Part shown: in pieces, positions 16,707 through 43,588 of the stretch | How positions within the stretch are numbered: position 1 is the first letter of the stretch | Layout: each line of letters opens with the position of its first letter | Assembly: GCF_965641715.1 (NCBI RefSeq) | Contig: NZ_OZ282453.1 | Length of the DNA: 64,000 nucleotides | Source of the DNA: Escherichia coli | GTDB lineage: Bacteria; Pseudomonadota; Gammaproteobacteria; Enterobacterales; Enterobacteriaceae | Direction: 5' to 3' (one strand) | Notes under the pieces: generated by a model | The model's input: only the letters and a program-made list of their open reading frames with translations | Databases searched by the model: none | What the model was told of the DNA's origin: nothing | Position numbers and translations under genes: made by a program

Positions 16707-17237
16707 ATGGCTATCACTGGCATCTTTTTCGGCAGCGACACCGGTAATACCGAAAATATCGCAAAAATGATTCAAAAACAGCTTGGTAAAGACGTTGCCG
16801 ATGTCCATGACATTGCAAAAAGCAGCAAAGAAGATCTGGAAGCTTATGACATTCTGCTGCTGGGCATCCCAACCTGGTATTACGGCGAAGCGCAGTGTGA
16901 CTGGGATGACTTCTTCCCGACTCTCGAAGAGATTGATTTCAATGGCAAACTGGTTGCGCTGTTTGGTTGTGGTGACCAGGAAGATTACGCCGAATATTTC
17001 TGCGACGCATTGGGCACCATCCGCGACATCATTGAACCGCGCGGTGCAACCATCGTTGGTCACTGGCCAACTGCGGGCTATCATTTCGAAGCATCAAAAG
17101 GTCTGGCAGATGACGACCACTTTGTCGGTCTGGCTATCGACGAAGACCGTCAGCCGGAACTGACCGCTGAACGTGTAGAAAAATGGGTTAAACAGATTTC
17201 TGAAGAGTTGCATCTCGACGAAATTCTCAATGCCTGA
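16707..17237 (+). CDS. fldA: flavodoxin 1 (176 aa)
   Basis: Starts [20 protein letters not shown], the flavodoxin FMN-binding loop. Confidence 0.95.
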
Positions 17238-17243
17238 TGTGAT

Positions 17244-17272
17244 GCGGCGTAGACTCATGTCTACGCCGTATT
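17244..17272 (+). terminator. hairpin downstream of fldA (partial terminator or attenuator)
   Basis: gcggcgtagactcatgtctacgccgta inverted repeat. Confidence 0.4.
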
Positions 17273-17442
17273 AATAGATAATGCCAATCAAAATAATTGC
17301 TACAAATTTGTAACTTTTGCTGTTGTACCTGTACAATGTCCCGGTGTTCAAGTGGCCTTGCCGTTGTAAATGTAAGCTGTGCCACGTTTTTATTAACAAT
17401 ATTTGCCAGGGACTTGTGGTTTTCATTTAGGCGTGGCAATTC

Positions 17443-17461
17443 TATAATGATACGCATTATC
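17443..17461. promoter_or_regulatory. Fur-box-like sequence at the uof start
   Basis: tataatgatacgcattatc matches 16 of 19 positions of the Fur consensus gataatgataatcattatc. Confidence 0.45.
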
Positions 17462-17533
17462 TCAAGAGCAAATTCTGTCACTTCTTCTAATGAAGTGAAC
17501 CGCTTAGTAACAGGACAGATTCCGCATGACTGA
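17447..17533 (+). CDS. uof: upstream-of-fur leader peptide (28 aa)
   Basis: ATG at 17447 gives MIRIISRANSVTSSNEVNRLVTGQIPHD; ends 8 nt inside the fur ORF (translational coupling). Confidence 0.7.
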   Translation: MIRIISRANSVTSSNEVNRLVTGQIPHD

Positions 17534-17972
17534 TAACAATACCGCCCTAAAGAAAGCTGGCCTGAAAGTAACGCTTCCACGTTTAAAAATCCTGGAAGTT
17601 CTTCAGGAGCCGGACAACCATCACGTCAGTGCGGAAGATTTATACAAACGTCTGATCGATATGGGTGAAGAAATTGGTCTGGCTACGGTATATCGCGTAC
17701 TGAACCAGTTTGACGACGCTGGTATCGTCACCCGCCACAATTTTGAAGGCGGTAAATCCGTATTTGAACTGACACAGCAACATCACCACGATCACCTGAT
17801 CTGCCTCGACTGCGGCAAGGTTATCGAATTTAGTGATGATTCCATCGAAGCGCGTCAGCGTGAAATTGCCGCAAAACATGGCATTCGCCTGACTAACCAC
17901 AGTCTCTATCTTTACGGTCACTGTGCCGAAGGCGATTGCCGCGAAGATGAGCACGCGCACGAAGGCAAATAA
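17526..17972 (+). CDS. fur: ferric uptake regulator Fur (148 aa)
   Basis: MTDNNTALKKAGLKVTLPRLKILEVL..., with HHHDH and CxxC metal-binding motifs. Confidence 0.97.
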   Translation: MTDNNTALKKAGLKVTLPRLKILEVLQEPDNHHVSAEDLYKRLIDMGEEIGLATVYRVLNQFDDAGIVTRHNFEGGKSVFELTQQHHHDHLICLDCGKVIEFSDDSIEARQREIAAKHGIRLTNHSLYLYGHCAEGDCREDEHAHEGK

Positions 17973-42163: not shown

Positions 42164-43588
42164 ATGACCAAAAAACTCCATATTAAAACCTGGGGCTGTC
42201 AGATGAACGAGTACGATTCATCGAAGATGGCCGATCTGCTGGATGCCACCCACGGCTATCAACTGACCGACGTGGCGGAAGAAGCGGATGTGCTGCTGCT
42301 GAACACCTGCTCAATCCGCGAGAAGGCTCAGGAAAAAGTCTTCCATCAGTTGGGTCGCTGGAAACTGTTAAAAGAGAAGAATCCAGACCTGATTATCGGC
42401 GTCGGTGGCTGCGTGGCATCGCAAGAAGGCGAGCACATTCGCCAGCGCGCCCACTATGTCGATATTATTTTTGGGCCGCAAACGCTGCACCGTCTGCCGG
42501 AGATGATCAACTCCGTGCGCGGCGACCGCAGCCCGGTTGTAGATATCAGCTTCCCGGAAATCGAGAAGTTTGACCGTCTGCCGGAACCGCGCGCCGAAGG
42601 GCCGACCGCGTTTGTCTCCATCATGGAAGGCTGCAATAAATATTGCACCTACTGCGTGGTGCCTTACACCCGTGGTGAAGAAGTAAGCCGTCCGTCCGAC
42701 GATATTCTGTTTGAGATTGCCCAGCTTGCGGCTCAGGGCGTGCGTGAAGTCAACCTGCTCGGTCAGAACGTGAACGCCTGGCGTGGTGAAAACTACGACG
42801 GCACCACCGGATCGTTTGCCGATCTGTTGCGTCTGGTTGCTGCGATCGACGGGATCGATCGTATTCGCTTTACCACCAGCCATCCGATCGAATTCACCGA
42901 CGATATCATCGAAGTGTATCGCGACACGCCGGAGCTGGTGAGCTTCCTGCACCTGCCGGTACAGAGTGGTTCCGATCGCATTCTGAACCTGATGGGACGT
43001 ACCCATACGGCGCTGGAGTACAAAGCGATCATCCGTAAACTGCGTGCGGCGCGTCCAGATATTCAGATCAGTTCTGATTTCATCGTTGGCTTCCCTGGCG
43101 AAACCACCGAAGACTTCGAGAAAACGATGAAGCTGATTGCCGACGTCAATTTCGACATGAGCTACAGCTTTATCTTCTCTGCACGTCCGGGTACACCAGC
43201 CGCCGATATGGTTGATGATGTTCCGGAAGAAGAGAAGAAGCAGCGTCTGTATATTCTGCAAGAACGTATCAATCAGCAAGCGATGGCGTGGAGCCGCCGG
43301 ATGCTCGGCACCACCCAGCGTATTCTGGTAGAAGGTACATCGCGTAAGAGCATCATGGAACTTTCCGGGCGTACGGAAAATAACCGCGTGGTCAACTTCG
43401 AAGGCACGCCGGATATGATCGGTAAATTCGTCGATGTAGAAATTACCGACGTCTACCCGAACTCTCTGCGCGGTAAAGTGGTGCGAACTGAAGATGAAAT
43501 GGGTCTGCGCGTGGCAGAAACACCAGAATCGGTGATTGCCCGTACTCGCAAAGAAAACGACCTTGGCGTGGGTTATTATCAGCCGTAA
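42164..43588 (+). CDS. miaB: tRNA-i6A37 methylthiotransferase MiaB (474 aa)
   Basis: UPF0004 N-domain, radical-SAM CxxxCxxC (CNKYCTYC), TRAM C-terminus. Confidence 0.96.

Follow-up and report, generated by a model that had tools for sequence, protein, structure and literature searches.

The window analysed here is a stretch of 64,000 nucleotides of Escherichia coli DNA in which the plus strand carries, in this order, ybfF, ybfE, fldA, uof and fur, and the minus strand carries chiQ and chiP. We focused on the fldA-fur region and in particular on positions 17238-17533, a 296-nt stretch in which the RefSeq annotation places exactly two genes, 'uof: fur leader peptide' and then 'fur', and which 5424 of 5426 complete E. 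coli genomes contain with at least 95% identity. The gene product, Fur, is the master regulator of iron, and the circuit that controls it, a textbook case, combines autorepression, inputs by OxyR and SoxS, RyhB and uof. Positions 17272-17578 are, base for base, the sequence of K-12 MG1655; colinearity with this genome extends to 18872, and the first of the 21 substitutions found between 17272 and 18872 lies at or after 17579. Because no substitution occurs before 17579, published K-12 coordinates carry over exactly to the region of interest. For a window position w, the corresponding coordinate is 728172 - w in NC_000913.3 and 727395 - w in NC_000913.2, the 777-nt offset between both versions having been checked on the fepA-fes footprint. 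The region is none other than the one that controls fur in E. coli K-12, and the initial annotation was right in treating its biology as already established. The gene for the methylthiotransferase MiaB lies in the same window (42164-43588, 738.7 bits to TIGR01574) about 25 kb from uof, a closeness that is probably a coincidence.

A 19-mer, TATAATGATACGCATTATC, is located at 17443-17461 (no strand assigned) and agrees with the Fur consensus GATAATGATAATCATTATC in 16 of its 19 bases, as the initial annotation had reported, with mismatches at positions 1, 11 and 12. Read as hexamers, it consists of TATAAT (5/6), GATACG (4/6), a single C and ATTATC (6/6). When both strands of the 64-kb window were scanned, this Fur box was the sole match with three mismatches or fewer, the runner-up sites being one at 15/19 and six at 14/19. 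Dinucleotide shuffles of the window gave a mean of 0.01 matches at this threshold, and only 1 of 100 shuffles had any. Comparison with published footprints, proposed in advance as the way to refute the site, did not refute it: the Fur DNase I footprint listed for fur in Table 3 of PMC2189734 (NC_000913.2 709931-709960), in which Chen et al. 2007 tabulate the footprint of de Lorenzo 1988, maps to 17435-17464 (no strand assigned) and contains the whole 19-mer. According to the same source, this footprint holds two sequence walkers, the best of them with an Ri of 12.3 bits, which is near the bottom among footprinted sites (PMC2189734). The title of de Lorenzo 1988 and later reviews describe repression of fur as dependent on iron and Fur. 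Inside the box lie a TATAAT hexamer (17443-17448) and a mapped transcription start site (17456), so that the operator overlaps the core promoter.

It might be argued that the 19-mer is a good -10 element extended by a chance palindrome and has no function as a Fur operator. Five to six of the 16 matched bases do belong to the -10 hexamer, the information-theory score of 12.3 bits is low (PMC2189734), and the right arm decays to such an extent that the total falls to 12-14/19 in many genera. Against this, the protection by Fur spans precisely the 19-mer stretch (PMC2189734), the GA.ACGCATT that follows the hexamer is kept far more than a -10 element requires, and only 0.01 such matches per window are expected by chance, all of which makes a chance origin extremely improbable. 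We conclude that the Fur box is a real operator, of moderate strength only. A weaker Fur-like 19-mer, GATAATGCCAATCAAAATA, at 17277-17295 on the plus strand (14/19) was rejected as a second Fur operator, as it lies outside the published footprint and within the OxyR-like block described below.

The core promoter overlapped by the box, Pfur, extends over 17420-17456 on the plus strand and comprises the -35 hexamer TTTTCA (17420-17425), a 17-nt spacer, the -10 hexamer TATAAT (17443-17448) and a start site at A 17456; in a promoter scan its hexamers gave 10 of 12 matches. The TATAAT forms the opening six bases of the Fur box, and its last T together with the following G completes the ATG of uof. 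Start sites were taken from Table S1 of Kim et al. 2012, which lists four 5' ends in the fldA-fur interval (coordinates in NC_000913.2): 709939(-), that is, window position 17456 (46 reads, 70-nt leader to fur); 710051(-) or 17344 (8 reads, attributed to uof, 103-nt 5' UTR); 710082(-) or 17313 (5 reads); and 709876(-) or 17519 (28 reads, 7 nt before fur). These counts come from one data set and one growth condition, on which any statement about relative promoter use rests, and a sequenced 5' end may also mark a processing site. The strongest 5' end of the intergenic region in that study is 17456, which is placed 8 nt past the TATAAT and 9 nt downstream of the uof ATG, at the first base of uof codon 4. 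Since Pfur starts downstream of the uof ATG, the Fur-repressed transcript lacks the uof AUG and cannot encode uof. Two independent papers likewise place Pfur inside uof, Puof upstream and the Fur box over the Pfur -10, and the northern blots of PMC6191717 are said to separate a uof-fur from a fur species. The 5' end at 17519 lies downstream of the fur Shine-Dalgarno sequence, and no promoter-like hexamers were found upstream of it in the scan; it is probably a processing or degradation end and not a promoter. A 117-codon frame on the minus strand (17227-17580) was dropped, as no antisense start was present among the Kim et al. 2012 entries retrieved for the interval.

The distal promoter, Puof, occupies 17308-17344 on the plus strand, with the -35 hexamer TTGTAA (17308-17313), an 18-nt spacer, the -10 hexamer TACAAT (17332-17337) and a start at G 17344, and it generates a transcript with a 103-nt leader ahead of the uof ATG. 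Its CTGTACAAT is invariant across 20 genera. The uof AUG is thus carried by transcripts starting at 17344 (8 reads) and 17313 (5 reads) and by read-through from fldA, and is missing from the transcript starting at 17456 (46 reads). Directly upstream of the Puof -35, at 17274-17310 (no strand assigned; -70 to -34 relative to the start at 17344), lies the window's best match to the 37-nt OxyR consensus. With 14 of 20 specified positions matched, it is the only site in the window to reach at least 14, and the block is nearly invariant across 20 genera. OxyR is said, in work attributed to Zheng 1999, to bind the fur promoter, and we take 17274-17310 to be the site reported there. This site would then be part of the distal promoter, and transcription from 17344 would be that of the 'fur promoter' said by Zheng 1999 to be activated by OxyR. 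A CRP-like half-palindrome, TGTAAGCTGTGCCACG, at 17371-17386 (no strand assigned) has three mismatches to TGTGA-N6-TCACA and is retained as a candidate; the window contains 189 matches of that quality, so this one is weak. The title of de Lorenzo 1988 names CAP control of fur.

Further upstream, the fldA terminator hairpin is located at 17244-17275 on the plus strand, with its stem formed by 17245-17253 and 17260-17268. Term-seq maps an RNA 3' end at 17275 (710897(-), NC_000913.3) with an intrinsic terminator score of 19.7; a consensus terminator scan missed this terminator. Its U-tract is weak (AUUAAU), so that read-through into uof-fur would be possible, and this weakness is consistent with the fldA-uof-fur read-through transcript that has been reported. 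We also observed that the uof frame is open upstream to 17297 both in the strain of the window and in K-12. It includes an in-frame ATG at 17336 that is part of TACAAT+G, the Puof -10, the same '-10 plus G' arrangement as that of uof; this ATG would be transcribed solely on fldA read-through RNA.

Taken together, we regard it as highly probable that fur is served by two nested promoters, that the 19-mer is the Fur operator of Pfur and that uof is present only on the longer mRNAs. Iron-loaded Fur bound to the box would cover the Pfur -10 and the start at 17456 and thereby block RNA polymerase, which corresponds to the known autoregulation. When Pfur is active, the mRNA would begin at uof codon 4, leaving out the AUG of this frame; its leader of 70 nt would include the conserved hairpin and the RyhB candidate described below. 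The weaker distal promoter (start 17344, next to the OxyR-like site) and fldA read-through would produce longer mRNAs, the sole carriers of the uof AUG. On these, ribosomes that end uof 8 nt inside fur could pass on to fur, control by RyhB and by MiaB-dependent decoding could act, and Fur bound to the box could at most be a roadblock. Autoregulation and uof coupling would then operate on different types of mRNA. A point against the model is that the more abundant mRNA, that from Pfur, has no uof, while translation of fur is reported to depend on uof.

A different arrangement was also weighed, with every fur transcript beginning ahead of uof, the Fur box within the transcribed leader, and Fur on the box either forming a roadblock or being functionally linked to the start codon of uof. 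The distal promoter it relies on is real and highly conserved, and the Fur box lies about 100 nt downstream of the distal start, so that a roadblock to distal and fldA read-through transcripts is possible; in addition, reviews name 'uof-fur' as the Fur-repressed transcript. Yet the strongest 5' end, 17456, stands at the expected distance past a perfect TATAAT that has a -35 element 17 nt upstream, and such an arrangement also conflicts with the placement of Pfur inside uof by two papers and with the two northern species, uof-fur and fur, of PMC6191717. A single leader common to all fur mRNAs is therefore very unlikely, and we retain the two nested promoters. The initial annotation had seen in this layout both the autoregulation of fur and its dependence on uof, which agrees with the footprint, the gene annotation and the reviews; its description of the stretch as one 'fur leader' does not hold, as the Pfur start lies past the uof ATG. 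The overlap between the Fur box and the uof ATG is a coincidence at the level of DNA, in which the ATG is the tail of TATAAT+G, and it does not tie autoregulation mechanistically to coupling. This explanation of the overlap and the comparative picture of uof given below are what the present analysis adds.

The uof frame itself (17447-17533, plus strand) is annotated as a gene in RefSeq and consists of 28 codons, from the ATG at 17447-17449, inside the Fur-box 19-mer, to the TGA at 17531-17533; its translation is MIRIISRANSVTSSNEVNRLVTGQIPHD. That the Fur-box site covers the start codon of this frame had been noted from the letters alone and is borne out, also by NCBIfam NF011344 'fur leader peptide', which uof passes with 85.2 bits (cut-off 71) over 28/28 residues. 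The further claim that uof ends 8 nt inside fur is equally correct, since fur starts at 17526 and the resulting 8-nt overlap is contained in CATGACTGA. No Shine-Dalgarno sequence was found within 13 nt of the uof ATG. The ribosome binding site and coding sequence of fur occupy 17512-17972 on the plus strand, with AGGA at 17512-17515, a weak Shine-Dalgarno sequence (-4.0 kcal/mol), and a 148-aa coding sequence at 17526-17972 whose product scores 309 bits with NCBIfam NF006999. The AACAGGACAGATTCCGCATGACTGA block of this segment is almost invariant. Reviews describe uof as coupled to fur, controlled by RyhB and decoded by MiaB-modified tRNA; codon 6 of uof, a UCA at 17462-17464, is the one for which MiaB-dependent reading is reported (PMC7466049). 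A fall of fur expression in the absence of uof translation is ascribed by the reviews to Vecerek 2007.

We compared the region in 80 Enterobacterales fur loci. In 72 of the 80 loci (73/81 with the window included), a TATAATG lay no more than 130 nt ahead of fur, and the core TATAATGA.ACGCATT was conserved across Enterobacteriaceae, with a right arm that decays in many genera. The frame opened by this TATAATG varied from 4 to 49 codons or ran in frame into fur. The E. coli layout, that is, 28-30 codons and a stop 8 nt inside fur, was present in about 40 loci, belonging to Escherichia, most Citrobacter, Enterobacter, Kosakonia, Kluyvera, Pluralibacter, Phytobacter, Leclercia, Pseudescherichia and Siccibacter. 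In Salmonella enterica subsp. arizonae (L029, 1419-1512), a 1-nt deletion in the hairpin loop leaves 16 codons and a stop 28 nt before fur (...ATGAAGTGA), and the same deletion with its 16-codon frame was also found in L007, L016 and L019 (Citrobacter sedlakii and two others); the E. coli type of uof-fur overlap is consequently absent from these close relatives. Klebsiella oxytoca and Raoultella have a frame of 14 codons, Atlantibacter one of 13 and Pantoea one of 4; in Mangrovibacter and Cedecea it ends in ATGA, and in Buttiauxella it continues in frame into fur. Among the 37 loci with an ATG at -79 or -82, the stop lies 8 nt inside fur in 36 and the length differences are of 3 nt. In the remaining one, an Enterobacter asburiae locus (L047, 1418-1512), codon 2 of fur is ACA and not ACT, by which the TGA is lost and the frame extends to 49 codons, 70 nt into fur. 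In 22 different sequences whose spacing is exactly that of E. coli, entropy at the first, second and third codon positions was 0.39, 0.30 and 0.42 bits in uof, compared with 0.05, 0.02 and 0.70 bits in fur.

Judged from these alignments, the uof ATG is conserved as a DNA signal, the peptide is not under selection and the frame is restricted to certain lineages. A stronger form of this view would be that uof is no conserved functional gene at all, its ATG being kept as part of TATAAT+G and its frame being lineage-specific and of little effect on Fur synthesis. Several results point in that direction: the main start site at 17456 excludes the AUG, the ATG is without a Shine-Dalgarno sequence, codon differences from E. 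coli uof are 139 nonsynonymous to 54 synonymous with codon periodicity absent, and the UCA codon 6 proposed to sense iron is not conserved even in loci that keep the frame. Moreover, 1-nt indels or stops break the frame in Salmonella arizonae, Citrobacter sedlakii, Klebsiella, Raoultella, Atlantibacter, Pantoea and others, and Yersinia is reported to have no uof. On the other hand, reviews cite experiments showing translation of uof and a dependence of fur expression on uof, NCBI has an equivalog model of this peptide, and the frame is open to the fur overlap in 37/37 loci with the ATG at -79 or -82 despite strong divergence in the middle of the frame, which, with length steps of 3 nt, counts against pure chance. 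On balance, we consider a uof without function rather unlikely, and keep to a lineage-restricted frame that is read on the longer mRNAs.

The leader RNA contains a hairpin, TCACTTC-TTCTAAT-GAAGTGA, at 17478-17498 on the plus strand, which covers uof codons 11-18 and positions +23 to +43 of the Pfur transcript. Of 52 distinct Enterobacteriaceae leaders, 50 gave this hairpin, always equally far from the fur ATG and also in genera without uof, when each sequence was folded separately with the 3' arm as anchor, a procedure biased towards finding pairs. Two-sided compensatory changes, TA to CG and AT to GC, were present in its stem. RNAalifold applied to MAFFT alignments of the leaders did not return the hairpin, since loops of unequal length place the 5' arm in different alignment columns. 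An Rfam scan of 17200-17620 gave no family, and whole-leader folds did not exceed shuffles in stability (z = -0.36 and -0.65). In the predicted folds, the Shine-Dalgarno sequence and AUG of fur were outside any strong helix and the ribosome binding site was not buried.

Pairing with RyhB was evaluated by sliding 24-nt segments against K-12 RyhB, whose seed was taken as nt 37-50. The best local candidate for seed pairing, at 17466-17480 (plus strand, -12.1 kcal/mol), would pair GAGCAA with RyhB U42-C47, including G44 and C45, and belongs to short and long transcripts alike; another, at 17428-17443 (plus strand, -11.0 kcal/mol), lies in the long transcripts only. The lowest-energy duplex of the region, -12.6 kcal/mol at 17362-17383, reached the 9th percentile of background 24-mers, and all RyhB pairing candidates are weak and unremarkable against the background. 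RNAduplex run over long sequences gave large-loop, physically meaningless duplexes that were no better than shuffles. In a published benchmark, PETcofold also failed to recover the literature RyhB-fur model. RyhB is reported to lower the short fur mRNA and not the long uof-fur mRNA (PMC6191717), and the same paper cites data on a RyhB G44/C45 mutant. We further observed a very abundant RNA 3' end on the plus strand at 17527, the U of the fur AUG (Term-seq 710645(-), NC_000913.3), with 137086 and 180817 reads, which is classed as neither Rho-dependent nor intrinsic and is flagged 'uORF'. Combined with the start at 17456, this end would delimit a leader RNA of some 72 nt, which would include the RyhB candidate and the conserved hairpin.

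Beyond the two-promoter arrangement, promoter choice might set the post-transcriptional regime of fur. The Fur-repressed housekeeping promoter would yield an mRNA without uof, and only stress-driven transcripts, from the OxyR-linked distal promoter or from SoxS-driven fldA read-through, would be exposed to control by uof, MiaB and decoding that responds to iron. The conserved hairpin and the very abundant 3' end at 17527 could further be signs of a stable RNA of some 72 nt (17456-17527) that would carry the RyhB site and could serve as a decoy or arise as a by-product of regulation. We put this forward as speculation that is, as a whole, distinctly unlikely to be correct, and parts of it are already contained in EcoCyc-derived descriptions and in PMC6191717, so that at most the synthesis would be new. 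The confirmation of the Fur site itself likewise adds nothing new. What the analysis provides is a precise map on which the Fur operator and the start codon of uof have bases in common but belong to different transcript types. As a practical consequence, any change in the uof ATG also alters the -10 element and the Fur box, which affects the reading of uof mutants and of fur reporter fusions. Coupling of the uof type is also not to be assumed in Salmonella, Klebsiella or Yersinia.

Compared with known systems, the Fur box corresponds to the K-12 fur operator (de Lorenzo 1988; PMC2189734), with the same DNA and the same footprint and no difference other than that it was found in another E. coli strain. 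The same applies to uof, which coincides with b4637 as described by Vecerek, Moll and Blasi 2007 in its 28-codon frame, its 8-nt overlap with fur, the UCA at codon 6 and a sequence without difference; relative to that description, our comparison adds the restriction of the frame to part of the Enterobacteriaceae and the lack of constraint on the peptide. As with thrL and ivbL (GcvB), mgtL and speFL, a short upstream frame sets downstream expression and an sRNA acts on the leader frame. Unlike those leaders, for which the contrast drawn is control through a terminator, uof overlaps the downstream start codon, and folding and the Rfam scan detected no attenuator structure in its leader. Other Enterobacterales also have autoregulated fur promoters of this kind, such as Pfur of Yersinia enterocolitica (PMC7867234), with the same TATAATGAGACGCA... 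motif some 80 nt ahead of fur and a Fur box over the -10. A frame of the uof type that ends in fur is missing from Yersinia and many other genera; the promoter is shared, and E. coli adds the frame onto it.
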